A DNA stretch of 64,000 bases from Chloroflexota bacterium. Lineage in GTDB: Bacteria; Chloroflexota; Dehalococcoidia; Lucifugimonadales; UBA3495. This document shows positions 1,689 through 56,253 of the stretch, in pieces. The notes beneath the pieces are model-generated. The model did not search any database. It had not been told where the DNA came from and was given only the letters and a program-made list of their open reading frames with translations. The position numbers were made by a program, and so were the translations under genes. The stretch spans positions 11,955 to 75,954 of the forward strand of contig JAQBVF010000021.1 of assembly GCA_027623675.1 (NCBI GenBank), given 5' to 3'. Numbering within the stretch: position 1 is the first letter of the stretch; each line of letters starts with the position of its first letter.

Positions 1689-1763
1689 ATAACGCTGATT
1701 AAACCCAGCCCAATATTTAACGCTAACACCGAAGGGCAGAATGCAGGCCAGAGGAGGGACTCA

Positions 1764-2957
1764 ATGGCGACGACACGACAGGATGGCGCGATCCCTGATT
1801 TCTTGAGGATGGATGAGGCGATCGGCTCGGACCCGGCCAACGCCAACAAGGCCGGCAACTGGAACGGCTGGCCGACCAAGGACCTGAACCCGGTAACCCT
1901 CATGGACGACTCCGGCCGGACGGTCCGCATCCGCACCCCCGTGATGGACCTTGAAGGCCTGATAACCCCGACCAACCTGCATTACACGGTGCAGCACTTC
2001 GCCGTCCCACCGGTGGTGGAGACCGACAAATGGGAACTGAAGGTCCACGGCCAGGTCAAGAATGAACTGACCCTGAACTTCGACCAGCTACGCCGGTTCC
2101 CCGGCCGCAGCGTGCGCACGGTCATGGAATGCTCCGGCAGCGACGCCACGTTCTTCGAGTACTTCAAGGACGAGGGGCCAAAGCCCTCACGCACTCAAGA
2201 GTGCATGATTCTCAGCGCCAGCGAATGGACCGGAGTGCCCCTGGCCGCGGTCTTGAACGCCGCCGGTCTCAGTGACAAGTCGCTCTACGTGCGCGCCGTT
2301 GGCAACGACGAGGGTGTCCCCGCCACCGCCGCCGAAGGCACCAAACCCTTCTACTACGACAAGGGCCTGCCGGTACAAAAGGCCCTGCACCCCGATACCA
2401 TCCTGGCCTATGCGCAGAATGGGCAGCTCTTGGAACACCTCCACGGTGCGCCCGTCCGCCTGTTGGTGCCCGGCTGGTCCGGCAACTGGTCGGTCAAATG
2501 GCTCACGGACCTAGAGATAATGGACCACATGCCCGACTGCTGGTACCACTACGAGTTCTACTATTACGGCGATTCTGTGAACGACCCCAACAAGGAACTG
2601 ATCACGACCATCGGCGTCAAGTCCATCGTGACCCAGCCCAACGACGACACCGAGAAGATGACCAAGGGCGTGCACATGGTCCGCGGCTACGCCTGGAGCG
2701 GCGCTGGGGCCATCTCCGCGGTCGATGTCAGCGTCGACGGCGGCGACACCTGGCACGCGGCCCACATCGAAGAGCCACGCGACCGGTTCATGTGGGTCCG
2801 CTGGTCCTACCGCTGGACCGCCGACAAGGCTGGCGACTACAACATCATGTCCCGCGCCACCGACGAGGTCGGCCGGGTGCAGTCCCGTGAGCCGCGCTAC
2901 AACAACATGCGCAAGAACTTCAGCGCCATCGTCGGCTATCCCATCACCGTTGAATAA
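1764..2957 (+). CDS. Sulfite oxidase-family molybdopterin oxidoreductase (no signal peptide or heme domain)
   Basis: ITP...Y..HF, Mo-ligating ECSG, WTGVPL, HGAPVRLLVPGW...VKW, C-terminal dimerisation domain GYAWSG...VDVS.DGG. Confidence 0.9.
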   Translation: MATTRQDGAIPDFLRMDEAIGSDPANANKAGNWNGWPTKDLNPVTLMDDSGRTVRIRTPVMDLEGLITPTNLHYTVQHFAVPPVVETDKWELKVHGQVKNELTLNFDQLRRFPGRSVRTVMECSGSDATFFEYFKDEGPKPSRTQECMILSASEWTGVPLAAVLNAAGLSDKSLYVRAVGNDEGVPATAAEGTKPFYYDKGLPVQKALHPDTILAYAQNGQLLEHLHGAPVRLLVPGWSGNWSVKWLTDLEIMDHMPDCWYHYEFYYYGDSVNDPNKELITTIGVKSIVTQPNDDTEKMTKGVHMVRGYAWSGAGAISAVDVSVDGGDTWHAAHIEEPRDRFMWVRWSYRWTADKAGDYNIMSRATDEVGRVQSREPRYNNMRKNFSAIVGYPITVE

Positions 2958-3021
2958 CCGATAGATAGCAGGTGAACAGCCGAGTCATGACCAACATTCC
3001 AATGCAGTCCCGGAGGAACAC

Positions 3022-3372
3022 ATGCCGATAATCGATCATTCAGAGGTCCGCTTGGCGCCCACCACGGAACGGGTGCGGGAGCGGTATCTGGTATCTAAAG
3101 ACCAAGGTGCGGTATCATTAACCGTAAAAGAAGTGGAGATATCACCAGGTTGGGAAGGGCGGATGCACACCCACCCGGTGGACGTCTCGATTCAGGTTTT
3201 GTCCGGCGCTATCCAGGTCATCATGGACGATGAAACGCGGACCGTCCGGGCCGGGACCACGCTGCTTGCCCCACCGGGCATGCCTCACAAGATGATTCAC
3301 CATCTCTGGACCCCCGCCCTTTTGCTGATAACCTACCCGTCGGCCGAATTAGAGACCCACCACCTGGAATAA
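3022..3372 (+). CDS. Cupin domain protein
   Basis: HTHP...VLSG and PPGMPH cupin motifs; GGAGG RBS. Confidence 0.8.
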   Translation: MPIIDHSEVRLAPTTERVRERYLVSKDQGAVSLTVKEVEISPGWEGRMHTHPVDVSIQVLSGAIQVIMDDETRTVRAGTTLLAPPGMPHKMIHHLWTPALLLITYPSAELETHHLE

Positions 3373-3410
3373 CCAAGACTCTCCCGGCTTAACCCCTAAA
3401 CCGGGGCGTA

Positions 3411-3457
3411 TTACAGAGCAAATTACAGAGCAAATTACAGAGCGTATTTTACAGAGC
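3411..3457 (+). repeat. Intergenic tandem repeat, 4 x TTACAGAGC core
   Basis: Copies at 3411, 3423, 3435, 3449 (periods 12, 12, 14), just before the RBS of the second sulfite oxidase. Confidence 0.9.
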
Positions 3458-3476
3458 GTATTGAGGAGGTTTCCCC

Positions 3477-4586
3477 ATGGCCCTGCCCAAGATCGGCACC
3501 AAAGCAGAACCGCAGATAATTCCCACGAACGCGGGCCTTCGGACCTGGGCCGCGCCCCCGCAGGCGTTGCAAGGGGAGATAGTCCCCAACGACCTGTTCT
3601 ACATCCGCAACCACTGGAAAGAGAGCCCCGAGATCGACATCAACACCTTCGAGTTGAAGATTGACGGCGAGGTCGAGCGCACCATCTCCCTGTCATTTGA
3701 AGACCTGAAGAAGCTGCCCCAAAAACGCTTCCAGGTGACCTTCGAGTGCTGCGGCAACAGCCCAGTGCCCGAGTACTACACCAAATCCCTCCGGATCAGC
3801 TCGGTCATGGAGCAGATCAAGGGTCACGGCATCATGGGCAATGCCGAGTGGGCCGGGGTTTCCCTTAAAGACGTTCTAGAACTGGCCGGCGTGAAAGACT
3901 CTGCCGTTGAAGTGATGTTCGAGGGCGCGGACCATGGGGCCGACGAAGTTGTCGGCGACCCGGCGGAAGTAACCTACGAGCGCAGCCTGCCCATGGCCAA
4001 AGCCCTGCACGAAGACACGATCTTGGCTTACGAGATGAACGGCGAGCCACTGCCCAAGGACCACGGCTACCCCCTGCGTCTCTTGGTCTCCGGCTGGTAC
4101 GGCATGAACTCGGTCAAGTGGCTGGTGGGCATCCACGTCCTTGACCACAAGTTCGAAGGGTTCTACATGACCCAGCGCTACATGACCATGAACGAGCCCG
4201 GCAGCCCGGTGCCGTACCGTTACTATGGCAAGCTGCAGGTCAAGTCCATCATCACCAGCCCCGTCCCAGGCGAGATCATCCCCGCCAGCGGCTACACCCT
4301 GGCCGGCGCTGCCTGGTCCGGCGAAGAGGACATCGAGAAGGTGGAGATCAGCACCGACGGCGGCGAGACCTGGGGGCTGGTGGACACCCTGCACCCACGC
4401 GCCGCCTATTCCTGGTACCGCTGGGAGCATAACTGGAACCCGCCCGCCGAGGGCAAGTACACCATCATGTGCCGTGCCACCAACTCGGACGGCGTAACCC
4501 AGCCCATGGAGTTCCCCAACCCCTGGGACGGCCGGGGCTACGGCAACAACATGGTATTCCCTTACGACGTGGAGGTCCGGTCTTAA
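3477..4586 (+). CDS. Second sulfite oxidase-family molybdopterin oxidoreductase
   Basis: FYIRNH, FECCGN, WAGVSL, LAYEMNGEPLP.DHGYPLRL.V.GWYGMNSVKW. Confidence 0.92.
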   Translation: MALPKIGTKAEPQIIPTNAGLRTWAAPPQALQGEIVPNDLFYIRNHWKESPEIDINTFELKIDGEVERTISLSFEDLKKLPQKRFQVTFECCGNSPVPEYYTKSLRISSVMEQIKGHGIMGNAEWAGVSLKDVLELAGVKDSAVEVMFEGADHGADEVVGDPAEVTYERSLPMAKALHEDTILAYEMNGEPLPKDHGYPLRLLVSGWYGMNSVKWLVGIHVLDHKFEGFYMTQRYMTMNEPGSPVPYRYYGKLQVKSIITSPVPGEIIPASGYTLAGAAWSGEEDIEKVEISTDGGETWGLVDTLHPRAAYSWYRWEHNWNPPAEGKYTIMCRATNSDGVTQPMEFPNPWDGRGYGNNMVFPYDVEVRS

Positions 4587-4625
4587 GCCCGGACGCTTCT
4601 ATCGGCTGTAAAACCGGAGGTAATC

Positions 4626-4907
4626 ATGACCGCACCAAGACGGATCCCGATTCCAGTCGCATTCTTCCTGGTTCTTGCTGCGGTCTTGGCCCTGATCATA
4701 TTCTTCGGGGCCTGGGCGGTAGCGGCTGACGTGGGCAACCAGCGCACGTTGGCCTTCGGCCTGCCCGGCACGACACCCGGCCTGAATGGCAGTAATATCA
4801 GAGAAACCGAAGACTCTGCCTTCCAGGTTGCCCGACTTGACGGCGAAGGAACGGCCGGCGACACCTGGTGGGGCGGCGCGTTTCTCAGGGCCTGCCCACT
4901 TCATTAA
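4626..4907 (+). CDS. Small membrane-anchored hypothetical protein ending ...FLRACPLH
   Basis: GGAGGT RBS, N-terminal hydrophobic helix, operonic position. Confidence 0.6.
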   Translation: MTAPRRIPIPVAFFLVLAAVLALIIFFGAWAVAADVGNQRTLAFGLPGTTPGLNGSNIRETEDSAFQVARLDGEGTAGDTWWGGAFLRACPLH

Positions 4908-4913
4908 GAGAAT

Positions 4914-4958
4914 CGGGCGAAATAACCGGGCGAAATAACCGGGCGAAATAACCGGCGA
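4914..4958 (+). repeat. Tandem repeat, 3 x CGGGCGAAATAAC plus partial copy
   Basis: Exact 13-bp units at 4914, 4927, 4940. Confidence 0.9.
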
Positions 4959-5079
4959 CAGAACGAGCCGGACGCAAGAAACGGGTAACAACGACCAGAT
5001 TCGATCTCACTTCAAAGGACCAACACATTCCGGGCGATCGGCTAAACCGTCCGCGTTTTGTTTGAGATAAACAGCTATC

Positions 5080-6489
5080 ATGGCGGTCACCACCAACGGT
5101 TCCCCTCCAGCAAGTCCTGAAACCAGACCTCCGGCCGCCGGCTCGCCTAAAGGGATCCACCGGGCCTGGTTGATACTAGGGATACTCGCCGCGGCCCAGA
5201 TCGTCGGCCAGTCCATCAGTATGGCCGCCGGAATCATGGTCGCTCCGCTGAACGACCCCACCGGCGGTTTCGGCTGGAACTTGGGAGTCATCGGCGCAGC
5301 GCTTGCCACGTATTACCTCTGCGGAGCGTTGGTCGCGCCCTTGACCGGCATGCTCGGCGACCGGTTCGGCGCGCGGCCCCTCATGTTTGCCTGTGGCCTC
5401 CTCTACGCCATCAGCATGATCTTGATCGGCACGGTAACCCATCTCTGGCAGTTCTTTCTCTACTTCGGCGTCATGCTGTCCGTCACACAATCGCTGGCCA
5501 TGGTGCCCATATTGGCATCCGTGAACGGCTGGTTCAAACGGCGTCTGGGCCTGGCCACCGGACTCCTCTGGGCCTCGGGCGGTATCGGAGCGGCGGCAGT
5601 GGCGCCGTCCATAGCCAGTCTTCTGAATGCGGTTGGCTGGCAGACCACCTTCACCATCATCGGCCTGGCCGGCGGTGGAACGCTAACACTTTTAACCCTC
5701 TTGTTCCGCTCCAAGCCCGCCGACGCCGGGGCAATAGCCTACGGCACACAGGCCAGCGACCCGCGGGAGATACGCCGCAGTAAAGAGGTGGAACGGCTGC
5801 GGTTGAAGGTTTTCAACAAGGCCATGCGCCGCACCCGGGCGTTCTGGAACCTGCCCACGATCCACGGCCTGGGGTGCGCCGGACACGGCATCGTATTGAT
5901 CTATTCCATCCCCTTGGCCGTCGAGCAGGGCGTCAGCCTCTCAGCGGCCTCATTCATCCTGGCGCTGATCTCCATCTTCAGTATCCTGGGCCGGTTCATA
6001 GCCCCCATTCTCGCTGAACGGATCGGCGCCAAGCCCGTGATGATGACGGCGCTGTTCGTGCAGGGAATCACCGTCTTGGTGTTGTTCTGGGCCAGCGACG
6101 CCTTTGCCTTCTACCTGTTCGCCATACTGTTTGGGTTGGGTTTCGGCGGCGAGATGTCGGCCTACCTGGTGGTCAACCGCCAGTACTTCGGGTCGGGCCC
6201 GCTGGCAACCCTCTACGGGTTCGAGATGATGGGTGCCTTGTCCGGTCACGCCACGGCCACCGTGCTGGGCGGACTGGCCATCTACGCAACCGGTTCGTTC
6301 AACCCCGCCTTGGTCATGTCCATGTTGTTCAGCTTCACCGGCGTGTTGGTCATCGCCAGCATGGAGTCGGGAGCCAGGGTGTTGATTCCCGATTGGGAGT
6401 CCAACCTCCCCCCGGAGGCGCGCACCACCCCCGAATTGGCCAACCAGGCGGTCCGCGCGGCGCTCTTGGAGCAGACCGCCAGCGATTAG
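5080..6489 (+). CDS. MFS transporter
   Basis: About 12 hydrophobic segments; GMLGDRFGAR motif A; WF.RRLGLA.G. Confidence 0.9.
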   Translation: MAVTTNGSPPASPETRPPAAGSPKGIHRAWLILGILAAAQIVGQSISMAAGIMVAPLNDPTGGFGWNLGVIGAALATYYLCGALVAPLTGMLGDRFGARPLMFACGLLYAISMILIGTVTHLWQFFLYFGVMLSVTQSLAMVPILASVNGWFKRRLGLATGLLWASGGIGAAAVAPSIASLLNAVGWQTTFTIIGLAGGGTLTLLTLLFRSKPADAGAIAYGTQASDPREIRRSKEVERLRLKVFNKAMRRTRAFWNLPTIHGLGCAGHGIVLIYSIPLAVEQGVSLSAASFILALISIFSILGRFIAPILAERIGAKPVMMTALFVQGITVLVLFWASDAFAFYLFAILFGLGFGGEMSAYLVVNRQYFGSGPLATLYGFEMMGALSGHATATVLGGLAIYATGSFNPALVMSMLFSFTGVLVIASMESGARVLIPDWESNLPPEARTTPELANQAVRAALLEQTASD

Positions 6490-6538
6490 CGGACGCAGTT
6501 ATCGTCCGGGTGTCTCATCTTGATCCGAGGTTGCTGAA

Positions 6539-7213
6539 TTGTCCGAACTGATTGACCTGACATTAACTCTGGGCAGCGACCGGATCAGTTTGGTGCCCGG
6601 ACTGGTGGGCGTGGAGACTGAGCCGATCCAGACTCACGCCACCCACGCCCGCTCCAATCAGAAGCTGTGCCTGGCCACCCACATCGGCACCCACGTGGAC
6701 GCCCCCTTTCATTTCGTGGACGGCGCGACCACCGTGGAGAACATGCCCCTTGAGAAGTACGCCGGCCCGGCCCTGCTGCTGGACCTCCGGCAGGTGTTCA
6801 AGGGGCGATCGCCGCTGTTGGTCTCGGAGCTTGAGGCTGCGGGCGCCAACGCCGAGACCGTCAAAGACAAGATTGTGGTGCTGTTCACCGGCTGGGCTGA
6901 AGCCGAGTCGGGCGGACCCAAGTTCTACGGACATGGCCCCTACCTCAGCACCGAAGGCGCCGCATTCCTGGCCGATTGCGGGGCCAACGCCGTGGCCGTG
7001 GACTTCCCCATCGACAAGCACCCCGAAACGCCGCTGTCCACCATCAAAGACTTTCCCGTGCACCGGCTGCTTCTGGGGCAGAACATCCCCCTGATCGAGA
7101 ACCTGATCAACCTAGACAAGCTGGTGGGCAAGGAATTCGAGCTTTGGGCCCTGCCGTTAAAGCTCAAGGGCGGAGACGGCGCCGCCACCAGGGCCGTCGC
7201 CCGCGTCCTCTAG
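6539..7213 (+). CDS. Cyclase-family protein (kynurenine formamidase-like)
   Basis: HIGTHVDAPFHF, H..LL...I.LIENL, PLKL.GGDG...RAVA. Confidence 0.9.
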   Translation: MSELIDLTLTLGSDRISLVPGLVGVETEPIQTHATHARSNQKLCLATHIGTHVDAPFHFVDGATTVENMPLEKYAGPALLLDLRQVFKGRSPLLVSELEAAGANAETVKDKIVVLFTGWAEAESGGPKFYGHGPYLSTEGAAFLADCGANAVAVDFPIDKHPETPLSTIKDFPVHRLLLGQNIPLIENLINLDKLVGKEFELWALPLKLKGGDGAATRAVARVL

Positions 7214-20588: not shown

Positions 20589-22454
20589 ATGTACGTAATA
20601 GGCACCGCCGGCCACGTGGACCACGGAAAGTCCACGCTGGTTAAGACGCTAACCGACATTGACCCCGACCGCTTCCCTGAAGAGAAGGCCAGGGAGATGA
20701 CGATCGACCTGGGCTTTGCCTGGATGACGCTGCCCAGCGGACGGGAGGTCAGCATCGTCGACGTCCCCGGCCACGAACGGTTCATCAAGAACATGCTGGC
20801 CGGCGTGGGCGCCATCGACCTGGCCCTGCTCATCGTCGCCGCGGACGAAAGCGTCATGCCCCAGACCAGGGAGCACCTGGCCATCCTCGACATCCTACAG
20901 ATCACCCGCGGCCTAGTGGTCATCACCAAGACGGACCTGGCCGACGAGGAGATGGTCGAGCTGGTCAAGGCCGAGGTGGAAGACACCCTGAAGGGCACGT
21001 CTTTCGAGGGCTGCCCCATGGTCGGCGTCTCGGCCTACAGCGGCGACGGCATGGACGAACTGAAAGCCACCATCGACAGCATCCTGGACGTTACCGAGGC
21101 CAGGAAAGACCTGGGCCGGCCCCGTCTGCCCATCGACCGGTGCTTCACCATCTCCGGGTTCGGCACGGTGGTCACGGGCACGCTGATCGACGGCACCTTG
21201 ACCGTGGGACAGGAGGTCGAGCTAGCCGGGTCAGGGCATAGGGCCAGGGTCAGAGGGCTCCAAAGTCACAAGACCAAGGTGGACACCACCGACCCCGGGG
21301 TCCGGCTGGCCGTGAACCTGTCCGGCCTCTCCCGGGAGGATGTCGAACGCGGCGAGATACTGACCGTGCCCGGCTGGCTCAAGCCCACCTACCGCCTGGA
21401 CGCCCGCATGCGCATGGTCAAGAACGCCCCCCACCCCCTGAAACACAATCAGGGCGTCACCTTTCATCTGTTCACCAGCGAGTCGCCGGCGCGGATCAGG
21501 CTGCTGGACGCCGACCGGCTTTCCGCCGGCGAAGAGGGCTGGGTCCAGCTACTGCTCTCCGAGCCGCTGCCGGTGGTCAAGGGTGACTTTTTCGTCATCC
21601 GTTCCGCCGAGGACACCCTGGGCGGCGGCCAGATCATCGACCCCAACCCACGCCGGCGCTACAAGCGGTTCGACGACGATGTTGTGGAACGGCTGATGAC
21701 CCTGGACCAGGGCACGGGCGGCGACATCATCATCAGCGTGGCTGAGCAATGGGGACCGTGTGACCTGACGACCCTCTCCCAGCGGACCAACCTTCCCAGA
21801 GAGGAAGTAACGGAACGGGTGGCCCAACTGACCGGGGAAGGGCACCTGATGACCCTGGGCGATTTCGGGACCGACGCCGAAGCCGTGGTCTACTCGGCCC
21901 AAGGATGGGACGTGCTCAAGAGCAAGGTCCTCTCCGCGCTCCAGCTCTTCCATACCCAGTTCCCGTTGCGGCCGGGCATACCCGCTCAGGAGATACGCAG
22001 CCGCCTAAGCCTCTCCCAGCCGGTCTTCCAGCGGACGTTGGCCCGGCTCAGCCAGGACGGCGCCGTGGTGGACGAACGGCAATCCCTGCGTCTGCCCGGT
22101 CACGAGATCACCCTAACTCCAAAGATGGAAGAAGAGGCGTCTGCCTACTTGAAGTCTCTGCGGAAAGACCCCTATTCTCCATCCAGCGACCAGCCGGTCA
22201 ACTCGGAACTCTTGGGCGTGCTCATCGACCAGGGAAAGGTGGTTAGGGTGGCCGACGGAATCATCTTCGACTCGGCCGCCTACCGCGAGATGACCGACCG
22301 CATCGTCCAGCACCTGAAGGACCAGGGCAATATAACGGTTGCCGAGGCACGGACCATGTTCGACACCAGCCGCAAATACATCCTGCCCTTCCTGGAACAC
22401 ATGGACCAACTGCAGATCACCCGCCGCACCGGCGACGAACGGGTCTTGAGGTAA
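20589..22454 (+). CDS. selB: Selenocysteine-specific elongation factor
   Basis: GTAGHVDHGKS, DVPGHERFIKNM, MPQTREH, C-terminal winged-helix SRKY..P.LE..D....T.R.GD.R. Confidence 0.97.
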   Translation: MYVIGTAGHVDHGKSTLVKTLTDIDPDRFPEEKAREMTIDLGFAWMTLPSGREVSIVDVPGHERFIKNMLAGVGAIDLALLIVAADESVMPQTREHLAILDILQITRGLVVITKTDLADEEMVELVKAEVEDTLKGTSFEGCPMVGVSAYSGDGMDELKATIDSILDVTEARKDLGRPRLPIDRCFTISGFGTVVTGTLIDGTLTVGQEVELAGSGHRARVRGLQSHKTKVDTTDPGVRLAVNLSGLSREDVERGEILTVPGWLKPTYRLDARMRMVKNAPHPLKHNQGVTFHLFTSESPARIRLLDADRLSAGEEGWVQLLLSEPLPVVKGDFFVIRSAEDTLGGGQIIDPNPRRRYKRFDDDVVERLMTLDQGTGGDIIISVAEQWGPCDLTTLSQRTNLPREEVTERVAQLTGEGHLMTLGDFGTDAEAVVYSAQGWDVLKSKVLSALQLFHTQFPLRPGIPAQEIRSRLSLSQPVFQRTLARLSQDGAVVDERQSLRLPGHEITLTPKMEEEASAYLKSLRKDPYSPSSDQPVNSELLGVLIDQGKVVRVADGIIFDSAAYREMTDRIVQHLKDQGNITVAEARTMFDTSRKYILPFLEHMDQLQITRRTGDERVLR

Positions 22455-27690: not shown

Positions 27691-27728
27691 GAGCCCGCCA
27701 ATGCGAAGAGTTGGTGGGTTTTTTATTT
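27691..27728 (+). terminator. Leader attenuator (intrinsic terminator) of the sulfite reductase operon
   Basis: GAGCCCGCCAAT / GTTGGTGGGTTT stem followed by a T-rich tract, about 20 nt before the TTG start. Confidence 0.8.
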
Positions 27729-27749
27729 GCCCAAAATTCGGAGGACAAG

Positions 27750-29585
27750 TTGACTAGCCAGACCGGACAAACCAAGACCGTGGAAGCCATCTACGATGAG
27801 AGCCTGGAGCTCTCCAAGAATTCTACAAGCATCATTCCCTTCCTGGACGACGAGATTGGGCGGTTGGAGGAGGAGGCAGCGGCTTTCGTGGCCGGCGAAA
27901 GGGAGAACACGGAATTTACGCCCTTCCGTCTGAAGCAGGGCGTCTACGGCCAGCGTCAGGCCGACGTGCAGATGATCCGGGTTAAGCTGCCCGGCGGTAT
28001 CATCACCACCGAAGCCATGGATACCCTGGGCACGTTCGCCGAGCAGTACGCCCCCCTGGGCAAGGGCCACATCACCACCAGGGAAAACTTCCAGTTCCAC
28101 CACGTCCCACTGGCCCAGTGCCCCGACGCCCTGAGACTGCTTGGTTCGGCTGGCCTGAGCACCCGCGAGGCCTGCGGCAACGTGGTGCGGAACGTGGTCG
28201 GCGCGCCTAGCTCCGGGATCTGCGCCTCCGAGGTCTTCGACCCCACGCCTTACCTGGCCGCCTACGTGCGCTTCGCCGTGCGCCATCCGATAACCCAAGC
28301 ATTCCCCCGCAAATTCAAGTCGGCTTTCACCGGCTGCGACGCCCACGACCATGTCGCCGCCGCCATCCAAGACCTGACCTACGTGTCACAGATCCGCGTG
28401 GAGAACGGCGTTGAGAAGCGCGGATTCAAGGTGTTTGTCGCCGGCGGGACGTCCATCATGCCCCGGCTGGCCAAACCTCTATACGACTTCCTGCCCGAGG
28501 AAGATTTCCTCCGGCTGGCCCTGGCCCTGTTCACCGTATTCAACAACGCCGACATGCTGCGCAAGAACCGCATGATGGCCCGCTTGAAGGTGCTGGTGGA
28601 CAAGATCGGCCTGGAAGAGTTCAAGGTCCTGGTCGAAGCCGAACTGGAAAAGATCGGACCCATCGACCCCAAGCCTTACATGCACGTTGAAGAATTGATG
28701 CGGGAGACCCCTCCCGAACTGGCCTCCAATGGCCATCACGACCATGACGGCGGCGATTACGCCAAATGGCGCGACACCAACGTCGAAGCACAGAAGCAAG
28801 AGGGCTACTACGCGGTACACGTGAAGCCCGAACGCGGCAACATCACCGCCGATCAGTTCCACGGCCTGGCCCGGATCATGGGCAAGTACACCGGCGGCCG
28901 GGCCCGCGCCAGCCAAGAGCAGAACCTGCTCCTGCGGTTCGTGCCCGAGCATCTGCTGCACGACGTCTGGTCCGAGCTTACCGACCTCGGCCTGGCGGAA
29001 CCCGATGCCAACAGCATCTCCAACGTGGTCTCCTGCCCCGGAACCGATAGCTGCAAACTGGGCATCACCTCCTCCATGGGACTGGCGGGGGCGCTCAAGC
29101 AGGAGATTCAAAGCTGGGACGGCCTGCTGGACGACCAGGGCGTCAACGACATCCGCATCAAGATGAGCGGTTGCCCCAACGGTTGCGGCCTGCACCACAT
29201 CGCCAATATCGGCTTCCACGGCGCCGCGGTGAAGGGCGCCGACGGCCAGCAGGTGCCCGCTTACGAGATGTTCTTGGGCGGCAACTACGGCGGCAGCAAT
29301 GTCCAGGATTCCCGCATCGGGACCCGGATCCCAAGGGTCAAGATTCCCGCGAAGTCGGTCCCCGGCGTGCTGAAGGACGTGGTCTCCTACTACAAGAACA
29401 ACCGCTCCGACGGCGAGAGCTTCAACCAGTTCTTGGACCGGGTGGGCGTGGAAGAGGTCTCCGCGGTTGCCACCAAGGCTCAAGACGCCGTGGCCGCCGC
29501 GACCCCAGGCTCCGACCTGTATATCGACTGGGAACGCTCCAACCTGTACAAGCTGGAGAGGGGCGAGGGCGAGTGCGCGGTCTAG
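27750..29585 (+). CDS. Ferredoxin-type sulfite/nitrite reductase hemoprotein (CysI/Sir-like)
   Basis: FRL.QGVYGQRQ, HITTR, REACGN.VRNV, PRKFK, SCPG...C, KMSGCPNGCG.H; GGAGG RBS before TTG 27750. Confidence 0.9.
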   Translation: MTSQTGQTKTVEAIYDESLELSKNSTSIIPFLDDEIGRLEEEAAAFVAGERENTEFTPFRLKQGVYGQRQADVQMIRVKLPGGIITTEAMDTLGTFAEQYAPLGKGHITTRENFQFHHVPLAQCPDALRLLGSAGLSTREACGNVVRNVVGAPSSGICASEVFDPTPYLAAYVRFAVRHPITQAFPRKFKSAFTGCDAHDHVAAAIQDLTYVSQIRVENGVEKRGFKVFVAGGTSIMPRLAKPLYDFLPEEDFLRLALALFTVFNNADMLRKNRMMARLKVLVDKIGLEEFKVLVEAELEKIGPIDPKPYMHVEELMRETPPELASNGHHDHDGGDYAKWRDTNVEAQKQEGYYAVHVKPERGNITADQFHGLARIMGKYTGGRARASQEQNLLLRFVPEHLLHDVWSELTDLGLAEPDANSISNVVSCPGTDSCKLGITSSMGLAGALKQEIQSWDGLLDDQGVNDIRIKMSGCPNGCGLHHIANIGFHGAAVKGADGQQVPAYEMFLGGNYGGSNVQDSRIGTRIPRVKIPAKSVPGVLKDVVSYYKNNRSDGESFNQFLDRVGVEEVSAVATKAQDAVAAATPGSDLYIDWERSNLYKLERGEGECAV

Positions 29586-29609
29586 AGACAGCCTCAGAGA
29601 CCAACTGAG

Positions 29610-30434
29610 TTGGCTCCTTCGCTGAAAGGTAAAACGATCGCTTATGTCGAGGCCCGCATGCTCTCTCAGATGGGGGCCTTGATTGAGCGTAACGGTGGCA
29701 CCCCCTACCCGGCCCCGGTGCTGCAGGAAGTACCACTGGGCGACACCCCCGAGGTGATTCGCCTGGTTGGCGACCTTTGCTCCGGCAAGGTGCAGGTTAT
29801 GGTCTTCCAGACCGGCGTTGGCACCCAAGCGCTCTTCGACAGCGCCGCCTCCCAGAGCCAGGAGGCCGAACTGTTGGGCGCCCTGGCCAGCGCCACCGTG
29901 ATTGCGCGCAGCCCCAAGCCGGCGGCGGTCTTGAGGCGGCACAAGGTCCACATCGACCAGATGCCCCCGGAGCCGTTCACCTCGGCGGACTTGATTTCCG
30001 CCATCCAAGAGTTGGACCTGGCCGGGAAAGAAGTGGCGATACAGGCCTATGGCGGTCCCAATAGTCTGCTGACCCAAACCCTCCAGCAGCGGGGCGCCAC
30101 CGTGCGCGAGGTCTCGCTCTACACCTGGGGCATACCCGAAGACATCACCCCGGTGCTGCGCCTGATCGATGCTCTGGAGAATGGCCGGATCGACGCCTTG
30201 GCCTTCACCAGCCAGCCACAGGTGGCCAACCTCCTGGCCATCGCAGCACAGGCCGGCAAGGAAGAATCGCTGAGGGAGATACTGAGCAATGGTCCCGTGG
30301 TAGTGGCGTCGGTGGGTCCCGTCTGCACCAAGCGCATGCTGGCCGCCGGATTCAGGGTGGACCTAGAGCCGGACCACCCCCACATGGGCAACCTGGTCTT
30401 GGCCTTGGCGGAACGGTTCGATCCCGGCGGGTAG
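29610..30434 (+). CDS. Uroporphyrinogen-III synthase (HemD-like)
   Basis: FQTGVG, AR.PKP, Y.W..P, FTSQPQV, SVGPV; follows a siroheme enzyme. Confidence 0.8.
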   Translation: MAPSLKGKTIAYVEARMLSQMGALIERNGGTPYPAPVLQEVPLGDTPEVIRLVGDLCSGKVQVMVFQTGVGTQALFDSAASQSQEAELLGALASATVIARSPKPAAVLRRHKVHIDQMPPEPFTSADLISAIQELDLAGKEVAIQAYGGPNSLLTQTLQQRGATVREVSLYTWGIPEDITPVLRLIDALENGRIDALAFTSQPQVANLLAIAAQAGKEESLREILSNGPVVVASVGPVCTKRMLAAGFRVDLEPDHPHMGNLVLALAERFDPGG

Positions 30435-48636: not shown

Positions 48637-48939
48637 CTACGCGCCGATGGGTTGTATATCTTTCAGGCCGGATTCTTCCGATTCTTTGGCCTGGTACAGG
48701 TCCCAGCGCAGTTGGAGAATCATCCAGAATTCTTCGGAGTTGCCGAAATACTTGGCGAGCCGGAGCGCCGTGCTGGCGGTGATGCCGCGCCGCCCATTCA
48801 CGATTTCGTTCACCCGCTGGTACGGTACATGGATCCCATCGGCCAGGTCACGCTGGGTGAGGCCCATCGGCTCCAGGAATTCCTTAACCAGCATCTCACC
48901 CGGATGGGTGGGCGCTCTGTTGCTTGGGACTCTAAGCAT
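48637..48939 (-). CDS. higA: HigA-family antitoxin
   Basis: PTHPGEML..EFL.P.GLTQ..LA, R.NEIV.G.RGIT..TALRL...FG.S..FW..LQ..WDL. Confidence 0.93.
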   Translation of the reverse strand: MLRVPSNRAPTHPGEMLVKEFLEPMGLTQRDLADGIHVPYQRVNEIVNGRRGITASTALRLAKYFGNSEEFWMILQLRWDLYQAKESEESGLKDIQPIGA

Positions 48940-50144: not shown

Positions 50145-52049
50145 TCACTCCTCCAGCGTCGTGATATCCCCTGGGTCTATGCCCAGCTCGTTGGCTTTCA
50201 GCAGACGGCGCATGATCTTGCCGGAGCGGGTTTTGGGCAGGGTGGGCATGAACTCCAGCTCGGCGGGGACGGCGATGGGGCCAAGCTCGCCGCGGACATG
50301 CAGTTTCAGGGCGTCCACCATCGCGTCCGACGGCTCCTGGCCGTTGCGCAGGGTCACGAAGCCCTTGATGATCTCGCCGCGCAGTTCATCGGGCTTGCCG
50401 ATGACCGCCGCCTCAGCCACCGCCGGATGGGACACCAAGGCGCTCTCGACCTCGGCGGAACCGATACGGTGTCCGGCCACGTTCAGCACGTCGTCGGCAC
50501 GGCCCACCACCATGTAATACCCATCGGCGTCCCGCAGGGCCACGTCGCCGGTCAGATAGACGCCGGGGATGGTGTTCCAGTCTTTGGCCTGGCGTTCCGG
50601 GTCGCCGAACACCGTGCGGTAGAAATGGGGGAATGGGCGTGTTATCACCAGCAGTCCGCCCTTGTCCGGCTCGGTGATGGGATGTCCCTCCCGGTCCACG
50701 ATGTCCATGGCCGCGCCGGGCAAGGGCAGACCCACCCGGCCCGGCCTGACCAGCAGGGTGGCCGGGGTGCCCAGGCAGGGGCCACCGGTCTCGGTCTGCC
50801 ACCAGTTGTCCACGATGTGGCCCCACTCGCCGTTGCCGCAGATGAATTCGTAGGTCCATTTCAGGGCTTCGGGATTTAGAGGCTCGCCGGCGCAGGTCAG
50901 GAAACGCAGCGACTTCAGGTCGTACTTCAGCGCATATTCCTCGCCGTAGCGCATCAGCATGCGCAGCAGGGTGGGGGCGGTGAAGATCACGTTCACCCCA
51001 TATTTCTCGATGATCTCGTAAAAAACGCTGGGACCGGGATAGTCGATGGCCCCCTCGCGGAACAGCGTGGTGGCGCCGGCGACCAGCGGAGCGTAGACGA
51101 TATAGCTGTGTCCCACCACCCAGCCGATGTCCGAGGTGCACCAGAAGACGTCGTCGTCCTTAACGTCCCAGAAGGTCTTGAAGTGATAGTAGGTCCCCAC
51201 CATATAGCCCCCGTGGACGTGCTGAACGCCCTTGGGCTTGCCGGTGGTCCCGCTGGTGTAGAGGATATAAAGCGGGTCCTCGGAGTCCATCTCTTCCGCT
51301 GGACAGTGGATGCTGGACTCGGCCATCAGTTGGTCGAAGTCCACTTCTTTGGGACCCGGCGCTTCCGGGGCGCCCTTACGGCTCCAGACCACGACATGCT
51401 CCACCAGGTCCAGCCCATTCACCGCGCCGTCGCAGATGCCTTTCAGGTCGACCTCATTGCCGCGCCGGTAGCCGACGTCGGCGGTGATGACCACTTTGGC
51501 GTCGGCGTCCAATATGCGGTCCCGCAGCGAACCGGCGCTGAACCCGGCGTAGACCACGCTATGCACCGCGCCGATGCGGGCGCAGGCCAGCATGGCGATG
51601 GCTCCTTCGGGAGATAGGGGCATGTAGATGACCACCCGGTCGCCCTTGCCAACCCCCAGCGAACGCAGTCCGTTGGCGAACCGGCTGACCAGTTGGGCCA
51701 GCCGGCCGTAGGTGAACACGCGCTCCGAGCCGTCCTCGCCCAGCCAGATGAAAGCCGCTTTGTTCTTGTTGCCGTTGGTCAGGTGCCGGTCCAGAGCGTT
51801 TTGGGTGATGTTGCACTTGGCGCCCAGGAACCACTTGAAGGTTGGGTAGTCCCACTGGAACACCTGGTCCCAGGGCCGGTACCAGTCCAGCTCTTTGGCC
51901 ACTCCCTCCCAGAAGTTCTCTGGGGCGTCCATCGAGGCCTGGTAGGCGGCGGCATGGTCCTGCAGAAAGGCCTGTTTGACCAGGGCGGGCGGCGGCGAGA
52001 TCTGGCCGGTTTCCTGTAGCAGGTGGTCGATCTGTCCTTGCTGGACCAT
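50145..52049 (-). CDS. acs: Acetyl-CoA synthetase
   Basis: LYTSGTTGKPKG, WWQTETGG, GR.DDV.NVAGHRIG..EVESA, LPKTRSGKIMRR. Confidence 0.93.
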   Translation of the reverse strand: MVQQGQIDHLLQETGQISPPPALVKQAFLQDHAAAYQASMDAPENFWEGVAKELDWYRPWDQVFQWDYPTFKWFLGAKCNITQNALDRHLTNGNKNKAAFIWLGEDGSERVFTYGRLAQLVSRFANGLRSLGVGKGDRVVIYMPLSPEGAIAMLACARIGAVHSVVYAGFSAGSLRDRILDADAKVVITADVGYRRGNEVDLKGICDGAVNGLDLVEHVVVWSRKGAPEAPGPKEVDFDQLMAESSIHCPAEEMDSEDPLYILYTSGTTGKPKGVQHVHGGYMVGTYYHFKTFWDVKDDDVFWCTSDIGWVVGHSYIVYAPLVAGATTLFREGAIDYPGPSVFYEIIEKYGVNVIFTAPTLLRMLMRYGEEYALKYDLKSLRFLTCAGEPLNPEALKWTYEFICGNGEWGHIVDNWWQTETGGPCLGTPATLLVRPGRVGLPLPGAAMDIVDREGHPITEPDKGGLLVITRPFPHFYRTVFGDPERQAKDWNTIPGVYLTGDVALRDADGYYMVVGRADDVLNVAGHRIGSAEVESALVSHPAVAEAAVIGKPDELRGEIIKGFVTLRNGQEPSDAMVDALKLHVRGELGPIAVPAELEFMPTLPKTRSGKIMRRLLKANELGIDPGDITTLEE

Positions 52050-52062
52050 GGAAAGCTCCTCG

Positions 52063-52174
52063 CTCCTAGCTGGCAGCTTTCGGCTATCAGCTTTAGGCTT
52101 TTGGGTCGTCTTCTGATGCCGGGTTTATTCTAACGCCTAAGGGCTTATGACTCCTAGCTGACAGCTTTCGGCTA
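52063..52174. repeat. 24-bp direct repeat pair upstream of acs
   Basis: CTCCTAGCTG(G/A)CAGCTTTCGGCTA at 52063 and 52151. Confidence 0.8.
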
Positions 52175-53254
52175 CCGGAACTTGGGCATAACCTCTTCGG
52201 CGAACAACTTCATCGACCGCATCACTTTCTCGTGCTCCATATCGCCGTACGAGAAGTGGGCGGTGTAATACTGAACGTTATGCTGGTCGCGCAGACCCTT
52301 GATGCGTTCCACCACATGGTCGGGCGTGCCGAAATAGGCGGTGGACTTGAGCCGGGATTCGTAACTGGGCGGGTCTTCAGGCCGGGTGTTTACCCAGTTG
52401 TCCAGATCGGCGTAGATCTCGCTGCCTCCCTTGAGGGTACGCCGGTATCCATTCAGGTCGGCGACCCAGTCCATGGCGCTCTGGGGGTCCCGTTCCGCCG
52501 TCTTTTGGTCCTCGGCCACGTAGGTAACCCGGAAGAAGGGCATGTCTTCCCACTGGGGTTCCACGCCAGCCTCGGCGCATCTTGCGGCGTACAGGCCGCG
52601 CAAGCCCAATACATCTTCGTCGGGCGTGTTGGCGCTGGTGAGCATGGGCAGGCCACGGGTCACGCAGTCGTCGATGGTGCCGGGCGTCCGCGACACGGCC
52701 AGGTACATGGGCGGGTGCGGCTTCTGGATGGGCGTGGGCGCGATGGTCAGGTCATCCACCTGGTAGTGCTCGCCGTGGTAAGTAAACCCGGGGGTGCTCC
52801 ACAGGCCCAAGATTATATCCACGATCTCGTTGAACCGCTGGGTCCTGGTCTCGTAGTCCACCTTGAAGTTGGCGTACTCGTAGACCACCTGGCCCCGGCC
52901 GATGCCAAAGTCCAGACGGCCCTCGCTCAGCAGGTCCATCATGGCCGTCTCTTCCGCCATGAATACCGGATCGTGGAAGTTGAGCACGCTGACTCCGGTG
53001 CCGATGCGTATCTTCTTGGTCCGGCCGGCCACATACGTCGCCAGGGGCAATGCTGATGGGACGATTCCGAACCGGGTGAAGTGGTGCTCGGCAAGCCAGA
53101 CCGAATCGAATCCCAATTCCTCGGCGTACTGGACCTGTTCAATCATCTCGTGGAAGATCCGGCCCTGGTGCGATGGGTCCCGCTGGGGCCAGGAAGGCAA
53201 TACAAACATACCGAATTTCATTGGTTGTGGATGCTCCGATACGACGGACAGCAT
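52172..53254 (-). CDS. LLM-class flavin-dependent oxidoreductase
   Basis: AEELGFDSVWLAEHHF, GRLDFGIGRG, P.P.QKPHPP, SM.LFAEEVMP. Confidence 0.92.
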   Translation of the reverse strand: MLSVVSEHPQPMKFGMFVLPSWPQRDPSHQGRIFHEMIEQVQYAEELGFDSVWLAEHHFTRFGIVPSALPLATYVAGRTKKIRIGTGVSVLNFHDPVFMAEETAMMDLLSEGRLDFGIGRGQVVYEYANFKVDYETRTQRFNEIVDIILGLWSTPGFTYHGEHYQVDDLTIAPTPIQKPHPPMYLAVSRTPGTIDDCVTRGLPMLTSANTPDEDVLGLRGLYAARCAEAGVEPQWEDMPFFRVTYVAEDQKTAERDPQSAMDWVADLNGYRRTLKGGSEIYADLDNWVNTRPEDPPSYESRLKSTAYFGTPDHVVERIKGLRDQHNVQYYTAHFSYGDMEHEKVMRSMKLFAEEVMPKFR

Positions 53255-53468
53255 GGTCTGCCGCTTCTGATTTGAGGTCGCCCTATTCTAAACCCAGCAT
53301 AGTATCGCGGCAAGGCATGATAGCGTGCCTAGTCCCACCCGACGGTTATGTCTCAGGTTACGTTGACCGCCCATCGCGCATCACCTACAATTCGGGGCCT
53401 CGAATCTGCTTGGGGCTTGCGAACGGACCAGCAGCCCAGCGACTACATCGACGGTTTGAGGAGGAATC

Positions 53469-54296
53469 ATGGCCACAGAAGGTTATTCACGCCCTGAATT
53501 ATTGGTTGACGCCGCCTGGGTCGACGCCCACAAGAACGACGCGGACGTGGTGATCGTTGACTGCGAGGTTGACGCCGCCTACTCCCGAGGGCACATACCC
53601 GGAGCGGTCCTGGTGCCCGACAATTACGAGAAGAACCCGGACACCGGCCGCGTGCTCCTGATGAATCCGGACCAGTTCAAGGCCATGTGTGAGGGGTTGG
53701 GGATCGGCGACGATACCCTGGTGATCGCCTACGACCATTCCCGAAGCCTCACCGCCGCCCGGCTCTGGTGGGCTTTGAACACCTACGGCCACACCAACGT
53801 CAAGATCCTGAACGGCGGCTGGCGCGCGTGGATCGCCCACGGCGGGACCGTTGATTTTGGGCGGACAACTCCCAAACCGGCCACTTTCACCCCAAAGCGA
53901 GACGACTCCAAACTGGCCACGGTTGACGAGTTGAAGCAGGCCTGCGAGGTGGGCGGCCCAGGCTCCGTCATCTGGGACGTGCGCAGCGACGGCGAATGGG
54001 ACGGTAGCAACAGCCGCGGCAACAAACGCTCCGGCCATGTGCCCGGTGCGGTCCACCTGGAGTGGTTCAACCTGATCGATTCAGAGACCAACGAATTCAA
54101 ACCCGCGGGTGAGATTCGCCGCATCCTGGCCGGCCACGGCATCACTCCCGACAAGAACGTGTTCACTTATTGACAGGGCGGCATACGTGCGGCGAACGGT
54201 GTGTTCGTCATGCAATTGGTCGGCTACGACAACACCAAGAATTACGACGGCTCAATGGGAGAGTGGGCTAACCGCGAGGATACCCCGCTCGAGTGA
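53469..54296 (+). CDS. Two-domain sulfurtransferase (SseA/MST-like), probable selenoprotein with UGA-Sec at 54171-54173
   Basis: GHIPGA, ARLWW, GHVPGA; readthrough gives FTY-U-QGGIRAA...NYDGSMGEW...PLE*, completing the domain; hairpin after the UGA; selB in the window. Confidence 0.9.
54174..54210 (+). promoter_or_regulatory. Candidate bacterial SECIS hairpin
   Basis: GGCAUAC-GU / AC-G-GUGUGUU stem, loop GCGGCGA starting 16 nt after the UGA (hand-folded). Confidence 0.6.
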
Positions 54297-54351
54297 CAAC
54301 GCATCCGGACCCACTGAATGTCATTCCAATCAGGCTAGATGGGAGAGAGAC

Positions 54352-54642
54352 ATGGCAGGTTATGTGATTGGGCAACTGAAACAGATCAATGACGCTGGAG
54401 CGTTCGGCGCCTACCAGGGCGTTGCGGTGCCAACCGTGGCCCAATACGGCGGCAAGCTGGTCGTGAATAGCACCAAGATTGACCCGGCCGACGGAGATTG
54501 GACTCCCGATGGCGTCGTAGTCATTGAGTTCGAAAGCGTCGACCAGGCCCGCAAGTGGTACAACTCCCCCGAATACCAAGCGGTCATCGGCCAGCGATTC
54601 AACTCCACCGACAGCGCCGTGATAATCCTAGACGGCGATTAG
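54352..54642 (+). CDS. DUF1330-family protein
   Basis: Y......P....YGG, EG.W-like DGDW.P..VVVIEF.S...A..WY.SPEYQ. Confidence 0.9.
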   Translation: MAGYVIGQLKQINDAGAFGAYQGVAVPTVAQYGGKLVVNSTKIDPADGDWTPDGVVVIEFESVDQARKWYNSPEYQAVIGQRFNSTDSAVIILDGD

Positions 54643-54651
54643 CCCAACCGC

Positions 54652-56253
54652 CTACGACAGCCCATTGACTATCCTGCGTATCCCGGCTTCCGGGTCCGCG
54701 CCCAAGTCAGCCCGAATGGCGCGGCGCCCCGACGTTCGCAACGCCTGCAAGTCCCCCACCGCCTGAGCATCAGCCAGCACGCCAAATGTGAACGGCGTGC
54801 CGGGAATGACCAGGTCCTCCGGATGGTCTGCCGTAAGCTGCAGATACAACCCGGTGCTGGGGCCGCCTTTATGCAGCTGACCGGTGGAATGGAGGAAGCG
54901 GGGCCCATAGCCCATGGTGGTAGCTAACCCCGCACGCTCGGTAATAGCTCGGCGTAAAGCGTCCAGGGCCTGTTCAATCCCCGGAGTTTCTGCGACATAG
55001 GCCATGATTGCCAGGTAGTCCCCCGGTCTGCCCTGAGCCAGGAGCTGGCCCAGCGATTCCGGAGCATCCATCTCAGGTAGCTTGCGCGAAGCTTCAAACT
55101 GGGCGAGGACACTTTCAGTCATGTCCTTAGCCGCTTGCACATCGGGCTGGTCGAAGGGATTTATCCCGAGGATGGAACCGGCGACGGCGGTGGCCATCTC
55201 CCAGCGAAAGAACTCTGCGCCCAGGTCATAGCGGTCGCTCAGGTCCAGGCGCACCACCGGCTGTCCCGACGCCTCAACGCCGTCCATGGCTGCATCCGCT
55301 TCTCCGTTCTCGTCGCCATCCAGGCGCAGATAAACAAAGAGCCGGTCACTTCCAAAGCCATCCGAAGCAGCGAATGGCTCACCGGCGACCGGCACGATGC
55401 CTGTGCCCTCTTTGCCAGTGCTCTCGGCGATGAGCTGCTCCACCCACAGACCGAAGCTGATGATGGCTGGGGAGGTGACCAAGGTCAGCTTGTCGCGTCC
55501 GTTCTTCGCATTAACACCCATCACCCCTCCCAGCCAAGCGCCGGGGTTCTCTTTGGCCGGAATGTCAGGCTCGGTCTTCTGGCGCATGGCGTCCGCCCGG
55601 TCAAGCAGCTTCCCAACGTCGAGTCCGATCAAAGCCGCGGGGACTAGACCGAAGTAGGACAGCACCGAGTAGCGCCCGCCCAGATCAGGGGGATTGGAGA
55701 AGACCCGCCGGAACCCTTGCTCCCGCCCCAGCCGCTCTAGGGATGAGCCGGGGTCGGTGACCGCGATGAAGTGCCGGCCGGCCATGTCTTTGCCCACGGC
55801 TTGCTCCACCAGATCGCGGAAGTAGGCGTAGAACATGTTTGGCTCGGTGGTGGAACCAGACTTGGAAGAGACCAGAAATAGGGTGTGCGCCGGGTCGATC
55901 GCCTGGGCCACCGACCGCACCCAGGCGGGCACAGTGGAATCCAACACGATCAGTTGCGGATAACCGGGGCCGCTGCCAAAGGTCTGACGCAGCACCTCAG
56001 GCCCCAGACTGCTGCCGCCCATTCCCAGAAGGACCACCTGGCGGTAACCGGCGTCCCGCACCTGAGCGGCGAACGACGCCAGATCGGAGACCTGTCGACG
56101 CATGAGGCCGGTCACGGTGAGCCACCCCAAACGGTTGGTCAGTTCAGTCGGGTCCGGCTTCCAAACGGTGTGGTCGCCGCCCCATATCCGCGACATCACC
56201 CGGCGTTGGTCCAGGTCGGCCAAGGCGGTGGATAGGTCCGGTTTATCGAGCAT
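54652..56253 (-). CDS. pgi: Glucose-6-phosphate isomerase (Tal-Pgi-type Pgi domain)
   Basis: RLGWL, LLGMGGSSL, SSKSG.T.E, GGRYS, EQL.AESTGK, NPFDQPDV, GPRFLHSTGQLHKGG. Confidence 0.9.
   Translation of the reverse strand: MLDKPDLSTALADLDQRRVMSRIWGGDHTVWKPDPTELTNRLGWLTVTGLMRRQVSDLASFAAQVRDAGYRQVVLLGMGGSSLGPEVLRQTFGSGPGYPQLIVLDSTVPAWVRSVAQAIDPAHTLFLVSSKSGSTTEPNMFYAYFRDLVEQAVGKDMAGRHFIAVTDPGSSLERLGREQGFRRVFSNPPDLGGRYSVLSYFGLVPAALIGLDVGKLLDRADAMRQKTEPDIPAKENPGAWLGGVMGVNAKNGRDKLTLVTSPAIISFGLWVEQLIAESTGKEGTGIVPVAGEPFAASDGFGSDRLFVYLRLDGDENGEADAAMDGVEASGQPVVRLDLSDRYDLGAEFFRWEMATAVAGSILGINPFDQPDVQAAKDMTESVLAQFEASRKLPEMDAPESLGQLLAQGRPGDYLAIMAYVAETPGIEQALDALRRAITERAGLATTMGYGPRFLHSTGQLHKGGPSTGLYLQLTADHPEDLVIPGTPFTFGVLADAQAVGDLQALRTSGRRAIRADLGADPEAGIRRIVNGLS

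Follow-up and report, generated by a model that had tools for sequence, protein, structure and literature searches.

Gene, reading frame, and domains

The window, that is, the whole 64,000-nucleotide stretch of Chloroflexota DNA analyzed here, carries a tandem-domain rhodanese gene interrupted by an in-frame TGA (Table 1). The standard ORF (53469-54173) encodes 234 amino acids and ends with KNVFTY before this TGA, after which the same frame continues as QGGIRAANGVF...YDGSMGEWANREDTPLE up to a true TGA stop at 54294-54296. The frame thus runs on, as the original prediction had stated, to a 275-amino-acid protein with a predicted selenocysteine (Sec, U) at position 235. Pfam PF00581 matched this protein in two stretches (E 1.3e-36), and its AlphaFold model, calculated with Cys substituted for Sec at 235, reached a pLDDT of 97.0 and a pTM of 0.94; two rhodanese domains and the rhodanese fold, by which a tandem-domain sulfurtransferase is recognized, were both found.

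Table 1. Features of the Sec rhodanese locus and its surroundings in the window
Feature	Position	Strand	Basis
Sigma-70-like site, TTGACC-17-TACAAT, 10/12	53363..53391	+	Consensus match only
Shine-Dalgarno-like GAGGAGGA, directly before the ATG	53458..53465	+	Sequence
Tandem-domain rhodanese gene, 275 aa with the TGA at codon 235 read through	53469..54296	+	Frame, Pfam, model
N-terminal rhodanese signature, residues 38-49, YSRGHIPGAVLV	53580..53615	+	Published pattern (PMC6856128)
In-frame TGA, predicted selenocysteine 235, catalytic position, loop U-Q-G-G-I-R	54171..54173	+	Alignment
Remnant of hairpin A with 4/6 pairs left; its GGC loop lies 17 nt 3' of the UGA	54185..54199	+	Comparison
Predicted SECIS, hairpin B: 8-pair stem 54191-54198/54202-54209, GUG loop 54199-54201	54191..54209	+	Folding, codon conservation
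C-terminal signature region, residues 256-266, ...YDGSMGEW	54234..54266	+	Sequence; entirely 3' of the TGA
Luciferase-like monooxygenase and acetyl-CoA synthetase-like genes, divergent, upstream	50145-53254	-	Common to close relatives only
DUF1330 gene, downstream	54352-54642	+	Common to close relatives only
selB, Sec-specific elongation factor	20589..22454	+	TIGR00475, 348.6 bits versus cut-off 242

The N-terminal signature pattern [FY]-x3-H-[LIV]-PGA-x2-[LIVF] (PMC6856128) was matched by residues 38-49. Against the published C-terminal pattern, [AV]-x2-[FY]-[DEAP]-G-[GSA]-[WF]-x-E-[FYW], the core YDGS.xEW was found, and Thr and Met at pattern places 1 and 8 depart from the strict form. Since the catalytic loop and the C-terminal signature both lie 3' of the TGA, the 234-amino-acid product would have no active site; NYDGSMGEWANR is an example of a peptide beyond residue 235 in the read-through protein. 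Two sigma-70-like sites were found in the region, compared with 0.7 expected by chance, and no terminator was found 3' of the gene. Assembled contigs of two sequencing runs span the full stretch with 0 differing letters, and those of a third run cover pieces of it only; no RNA data set was listed as containing it. Because all of these are contigs and the two covering runs may be the source of this very assembly, we rejected the read data as independent support.

Position 235 aligned with the catalytic Cys of PDB entries 1uar (YCRIAER), 1e0c (HCQTHHR), 3hzu (YCRIGER), and 8k55, and the column was Cys or TGA in 66 of 66 rows of the protein alignment. The TGA therefore falls exactly on the catalytic Cys, as had been claimed. 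The accompanying claim that SseA and MST enzymes share a YC..G.RA loop held in part: an Arg-ending loop is the SseA/CysA/RhdA type, but the MST loop motif is CG(S/T)GVT (PMC6856128). UQGGIR conforms neither to this motif nor to the TST loop motif CRXGX(R/T) from the same source, as Gln, not Arg, follows the catalytic residue. The protein scored 123 bits with the MST model PRK11493 (cut-off 250) and 34.5 with NF041203 (cut-off 115). The basic residues K55, R183, R187, and R240 were kept in 28, 28, 27, and 30 of the 30 Sec rows, respectively, and were conserved alike in Sec and Cys rows, which would suit an anionic donor; in human TST, positive loop charges bind anionic donors such as thiosulfate (PMC9369223). 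No conserved second Cys was seen near the active site in the protein alignment.

Conservation of the TGA and its Cys counterparts

The TGA form was present in 32 of 40 relatives (33 genes with one TGA each), and in the 30 relative loci retrieved, 31 of 31 genes had the TGA at codon 235. Among the eight relatives without the TGA form, one (G039) had a Cys version and no selA match. Three of the 32 TGA-carrying relatives also gave no selA match, these genomes being 78-87% complete. A scan of named genomes, in which the best 80 of 139 loci were kept, showed the TGA at the catalytic codon in 84 of 84 gene matches, each followed by an open frame of 40-53 codons to the next stop. All 80 loci were titled Dehalococcoidia, Chloroflexota, or SAR202, except for one "uncultured bacterium". 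The stop codons at the gene ends of the same 84 matches were 43 TAG, 29 TAA, and 12 TGA, and the source gene itself ends with TGA where relatives have TAG or TAA, indicating that TGA still acts as a stop. Deduplication of the overlapping sets left 135 distinct TGA genes and 44 close Cys genes. Thus, two of the three findings that would have spoken against the original prediction, a TGA unique to this assembly and a decayed segment behind it, were not encountered in these sets.

A class-wide sample of 200 genomes gave 101 with matches at E <= 1e-48. The catalytic codon was TGA in 35 of the 35 TGA matches fetched (67 listed) and TGC or TGT in 45 of the 45 other matches fetched (of 47); in the matches examined, the residue homologous to U235 was always Cys, never Trp or Gly. 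The loop read CQGGIR in 17 Cys-form matches, so the Cys/TGA pairs anticipated at this position exist with an identical QGGIR loop. Regarding selA, the 101 genomes were divided into TGA with selA (64), TGA without selA (1), Cys only with selA (22), and Cys only without selA (14), among which one "Cys only" genome was not fetched and another contained a CRIGER-type paralogue. Accordingly, 14 of the 15 genomes without a selA match had Cys forms only, the lone TGA genome among them being 95% complete. The pattern, rather than the p value of 8.5e-7, should be considered here, because related genomes were counted and the p value overstates the association. For 110 proteins, a quick tree that masked the catalytic column needed 10 Sec/Cys changes, at least 7 of which were forced by well-supported branches. 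Beyond the class, 15 genomes of other classes matched in a phylum sample of 200 genomes, one of them with TGA.

All 120 protein-database homologues listed, including NQW23686.1 and PKB78682.1, end one residue before Sec, in agreement with the expectation that gene callers truncate the gene. This enzyme is therefore represented in the databases without its catalytic loop, and what is deduced from them about sulfur metabolism in SAR202 rests on an incomplete protein.

Several loci carried more than one copy. Two rhodanese matches each were observed in four loci of the named-genome scan. At L115:8064-9848 (G024), a tandem pair of Sec rhodanese genes encodes UQGGIR and UQAGLR, and a paralogue with CRSGIR lies at a distance of 4 kb. 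Furthermore, a CQGGIR orthologue at L148:2501-3286 (G209) has an in-frame TAG in its first domain and is either a pseudogene or a sequence error.

Selenocysteine machinery and other candidates in the genome

Decoding of the UGA as proposed implies selA, selC, and selD in the source genome (G000, 91% complete), and all three were found: selA with 554.8 bits, tRNA-Sec (selC), and selD carrying an in-frame TGA of its own. The selB gene, correctly placed within the window beforehand, lies ~33 kb from the Sec rhodanese gene and is unlinked to it. A coding-potential scan of the genome printed 106 TGA sites, among which at least 19 further candidate selenoprotein genes were picked by motif. Judging by their motifs, we take these 19 to be UGSC, thioredoxin-, peroxiredoxin-, DsbA-, OsmC-, GrdB-, and deiodinase-like proteins, SelD, and an ABC binding protein.

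The genome has three rhodanese genes with an in-frame TGA in all. One of the other two, G000:C6:47393-49063 (+) with the TGA at 48917, encodes a long hydrophobic membrane protein with a C-terminal rhodanese domain (YCN-TGA-PDD) and is a candidate for the CxU type of Sec rhodanese; its hydrophobic part presumably resembles a cation/proton antiporter. The other, on G000:C43 with the TGA at 26882 (+), encodes a single-domain rhodanese (IITT-TGA-KLGNRAA) followed by a hairpin with a GUC triloop. Separate CRIGER rhodanese and CGGGIA genes are also encoded.

Hairpins downstream of the UGA

A hairpin with a G-led loop had been predicted to begin 16 nt after the UGA. This was about right: in the RNAfold structure, a hairpin with a GGUGU loop opens 14-15 nt 3' of the UGA, and the conserved 8-pair stem with a GUG loop begins 17 nt after the UGA. 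The loop of this structure, hereafter hairpin B, lies 25 nt after the UGA in the source gene. The bacterial SECIS consensus calls for a stem of 4-16 bp, an energy of at most -7.5 kcal/mol, and, 16-37 nt downstream of the UGA, a loop of 3-9 nt that has a G within its first two positions (PMC13188914). With a GUG or GGUGU loop at 24-25 nt and 7-8 pairs, the hairpin agrees with this consensus, which is a loose one. The folding energy was -16.2 kcal/mol for a 51-nt stretch, not beyond that of shuffled sequences; z values for the four stretches folded were no better than chance (+0.47, -0.66, -0.68, and +0.45). Synonymous resampling likewise gave no separation between Sec genes (mean z -0.62) and Cys genes (-0.69). 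Folding energy was therefore rejected as proof of a SECIS, and Rfam showed no match at E <= 1 within 53200-54700. Support for the predicted hairpin comes instead from codon conservation.

Sec genes encoding [IV]RAAH used the codon string CGT GCG GCG CAC in 84 of 86 cases, compared with at most 3 of 27 for any single string in the Cys genes encoding the same residues. These codons form a second structure, hairpin A, whose stem has 6 pairs and whose GGC loop is 17 nt downstream of the UGA. The full hairpin A was present in 103 of 135 Sec genes versus 0 of 44 Cys genes, and nine genes keep a hairpin A pair through a double change (Ala to Ser with His to Asn). The source gene belongs to a group of 24 genes encoding RAAN. 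In this group, hairpin A is reduced to 2-4 of 6 pairs, and hairpin B, whose GUN loop lies 25 nt downstream of the UGA, has 8 pairs in 23 genes and 7 in one; these counts come from close kin with 14 distinct strings, A and B are by their construction partly exclusive, and 5-7 of the B pairs already exist in many genes with hairpin A. The groups were first set by pairing, which is partly circular, and then redefined by the encoded residues alone. The Arg codon was CGT in 92 of 93 RAAH genes versus 1 of 24 RAAN genes, that one being the source gene itself. The codons NTG TTC GTC, which close hairpin B, were used in 24 of 24 RAAN genes versus 15 of 40 RAAH genes encoding the same residues.

For 87 close genes, a DNA tree restricted to the sequence 5' of the TGA needed three changes between the hairpin A and B states, one of them at G003, a hairpin-A gene nested within the genus of the source gene. 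Of the 19 other candidates of the genome, 16 fold with a loop at +20 to +31 from the U of the UGA that has a G among its first two positions. GUN triloops account for 8 of these 16, and the SelD loop lies at +31; the distance of hairpin B thus suits the source genome. Judging from these sequences, the SECIS hairpin in the lineage of the source gene seems to have moved 8 nt downstream. We give a slightly better than even chance to the following course: hairpin A (17 nt) was ancestral and broke when His changed to Asn eight codons after Sec, and hairpin B (25 nt) replaced it, so that the old codons were freed and the new ones frozen, with at least one switch back, in an enzyme that would move sulfur through a Se-S bond. 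If true, the swap would offer a natural experiment into how SelB gauges distance and a case of RNA structure steering an amino-acid change beside an active site. The two alternative hairpins would also provide a simple reporter system for SECIS spacing rules outside E. coli.

Gene neighborhood

Neighbors recurring among 175 loci were the divergent acetyl-CoA synthetase-like gene (55), the luciferase-like monooxygenase gene (34), and the DUF1330 gene (11), all limited to close kin. We read them as synteny among kin and rejected an operon-based function for the Sec clade. The nearest Cys-only outgroup, with loops such as CQTGVR and 35-43% identity, had a different context. Within 2.5 kb of 18 outgroup Cys loci, TusA/YedF-like genes were found at 16, YeeE-like genes at 11, and SelD and CysM at 5 each; such sulfur- or selenium-trafficking neighbors were absent from 40 Sec, 27 ingroup Cys, and 80 close loci. 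The outgroup clusters (L149-L151, L154-L156, L158, L161, L162, L164-L167, L142, L203, and L204) combine YeeE-like, TusA/YedF-like, SelD, and CysM/Mec/MoaD-like genes, where the CysM, Mec, and MoaD labels are our assumption, and possibly form a sulfur or selenium relay in Dehalococcoidia. This context points to an ancestry in sulfur or selenium trafficking, not to a present partner. The 91%-complete source genome gave no YeeE match and a sub-threshold TusA match only.

Two further regions of the window were noted. At 117-7213 (+), a four-domain rhodanese gene (117-1688) is followed by genes for two sulfite-oxidase-type molybdoenzymes, a cupin, an MFS transporter, and a cyclase-family protein, a possible sulfur-compound oxidation cluster. 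At 27711-30434 (+), a HemD-like gene adjoins a gene of the nitrite/sulfite reductase family, which reached the cut-off of none of the NCBIfam models tried.

Proposed mechanism

Taken together, the in-frame UGA of the rhodanese gene is very likely decoded as selenocysteine, and SelB with Sec-tRNA would almost certainly bind the hairpin 25 nt downstream and insert Sec235. Family knowledge suggests that the enzyme probably takes sulfane sulfur from a donor and delivers it to a thiol acceptor via a Se-S intermediate. With thiosulfate, a persulfide, or a polysulfide as the donor, bound by the four conserved basic residues, the selenolate would attack the outer donor sulfur to give enzyme-Se-SH. The sulfur would then pass to a second substrate, probably a thioredoxin-type protein or a small thiol, in a ping-pong cycle as in Cys rhodaneses. 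Sec would raise the rate rather than bring in new chemistry, as the lineage has made about ten Sec/Cys switches with its loop unchanged. Since the loop lies outside the TST and MST motifs and the MST model scored below its cut-off, the donor is a guess.

Alternatively, a true selenoenzyme at this locus might serve the cell more in antioxidant redox, acting on thiyl radicals, peroxides, or oxidized persulfides, than in sulfur transfer. The genome has many TGA-bearing candidates that we labeled by motif as thioredoxin-, peroxiredoxin-, and OsmC-like. The most similar solved loop is CQTHHR of Azotobacter RhdA, which has Gln at +1 and the final Arg in common with UQGGIR, and RhdA scavenges glutathione thiyl radicals via Cys230 (PMC3458005). 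The overall protein, however, is closer to 1uar than to RhdA (140.9 versus 119.6 bits), shows no second Cys of the kind sought above, and has sulfur carriers as its outgroup neighbors, and we consider an antioxidant role unlikely.

We rate still lower a role as a selenium carrier, in which selenium from selenite or selenide would be held as a perselenide or diselenide and passed to SelD or other selenium users. The SelD, TusA/YedF-like, and YeeE-like genes of the outgroup would fit such a role; Cys rhodanese binds selenium 1:1 in vitro (reviewed in PMC11957799 and PMC9369223), and genomics ties YedE and YedF to selenium metabolism (PMC5322559). This context, however, is confined to the outgroup, its genes are missing or sub-threshold in the source genome, and the family is retained in 14 genomes without a selA match. 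A Sec enzyme needed for making Sec would, moreover, depend on its own product, and selenium on bovine rhodanese seems ineffective for delivery according to one of the reviews (PMC11957799). Sulfur transfer thus fits better than selenium trafficking. That the TGA is a real stop, leaving a 234-amino-acid protein or a pseudogene as all 120 listed homologues are annotated, or is reassigned genome-wide to another residue, is very improbable, because the 40 post-TGA residues hold the catalytic loop and C-terminal signature intact down to ~36% identity, and because reassignment was rejected on the terminal TGA of the gene and the exclusive Cys of its homologues.

Relation to published rhodaneses

The gene belongs to a Sec rhodanese family already predicted in 2005 from ocean DNA, with its activity only predicted. 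As the original prediction had noted, such proteins appear in the literature as a predicted family: three Sargasso sequences of "rhodanese-related sulfurtransferase" COG2897 with uQGGIR or uQAGVR (PMC1088965, 2005), eight sequences under cd01449 (PMC2398784, 2008), COG2897/SseA with MQG53192.1 (PMC9312934, 2022), whose table puts the rhodanese families under "predicted", and "form 4" with the motif UxxG and MCY3690685.1 (PMC13188914, 2026). Further background is given in PMC1976440, PMC1794560, PMC11957799, PMC5322559, and PMC4210487. The features of form 4 were found here: a UGA that replaces, in frame, the codon of the catalytic Cys in the C-terminal domain, UQGG fitting UxxG, and Cys homologues at the same position in 44 distinct close genes. 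Forms 1-3 and 5 (UxxS, UxxG form 2, CxU/NF041203, and TsoB) likewise have Sec in a rhodanese domain but differ in motif or architecture (PMC13188914). A different family stands behind the "Sulfurtransferase COG2897" row in the 2007 and 2008 papers; its 2008 example has the motif GGPTUGFS.

Compared by eye, members in the 2005 supplement read uQGGIRAAH or uQAGVRAAH, followed by YDGSMGEWAN or YDASMGEY, with Sec at the position found here; uQGGIR appears in the 2008 supplement as well. A published gene, compared over its full downstream DNA, has the CGT GCG GCG CAC string of hairpin A. The published entries compared are fragments that carry no taxonomy. The source gene differs from these members in Asn for His at +8 and in the predicted use of the downstream hairpin B.

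In structure, the Thermus thermophilus rhodanese 1uar has a similar two-domain fold (TM 0.91). Together with mycobacterial CysA2, CysA3, and SseA (3hwi, 3aay, and 3hzu), it spans TM 0.88-0.91 at 29-33% identity, with Arg closing the loop, whereas these loops read CRIAER or CRIGER with Cys instead of UQGGIR with Sec. Azotobacter vinelandii RhdA (1e0c, TM 0.88) shares Gln after the catalytic residue and the terminal loop Arg but differs in its CQTHHR loop with Cys and in overall sequence (30% identity). The MSTs (E. coli SseA 1urh and human 4jgt) have a similar fold (TM 0.82-0.84), but their CG(S/T)GVT motif is absent here. Because the source genome has its own CRIGER and CGGGIA genes, the Sec rhodanese represents a third subfamily.

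Given that predictions of the family date back to 2005, this gene is a minor addition to the catalogue. Only the hairpin swap and the gene context of the outgroup were not found in print. In the literature covered, which left out most subscription papers, we found nothing on bacterial SECIS turnover by synonymous or compensatory change, no bench study of a Sec rhodanese, and none on the role of selenium in such a group-transfer enzyme; titles and abstract openings gave nothing on topic that links SAR202 to selenocysteine. For the role of selenium, the naturally occurring Sec and Cys enzymes, identical in the rest of the loop, form a ready pair. In BSepDB, the genomes of the closely related loci L053 and L056 hold 49 and 46 selenoprotein genes, respectively, and are among the most selenoprotein-rich genomes of that database (PMC13326102).
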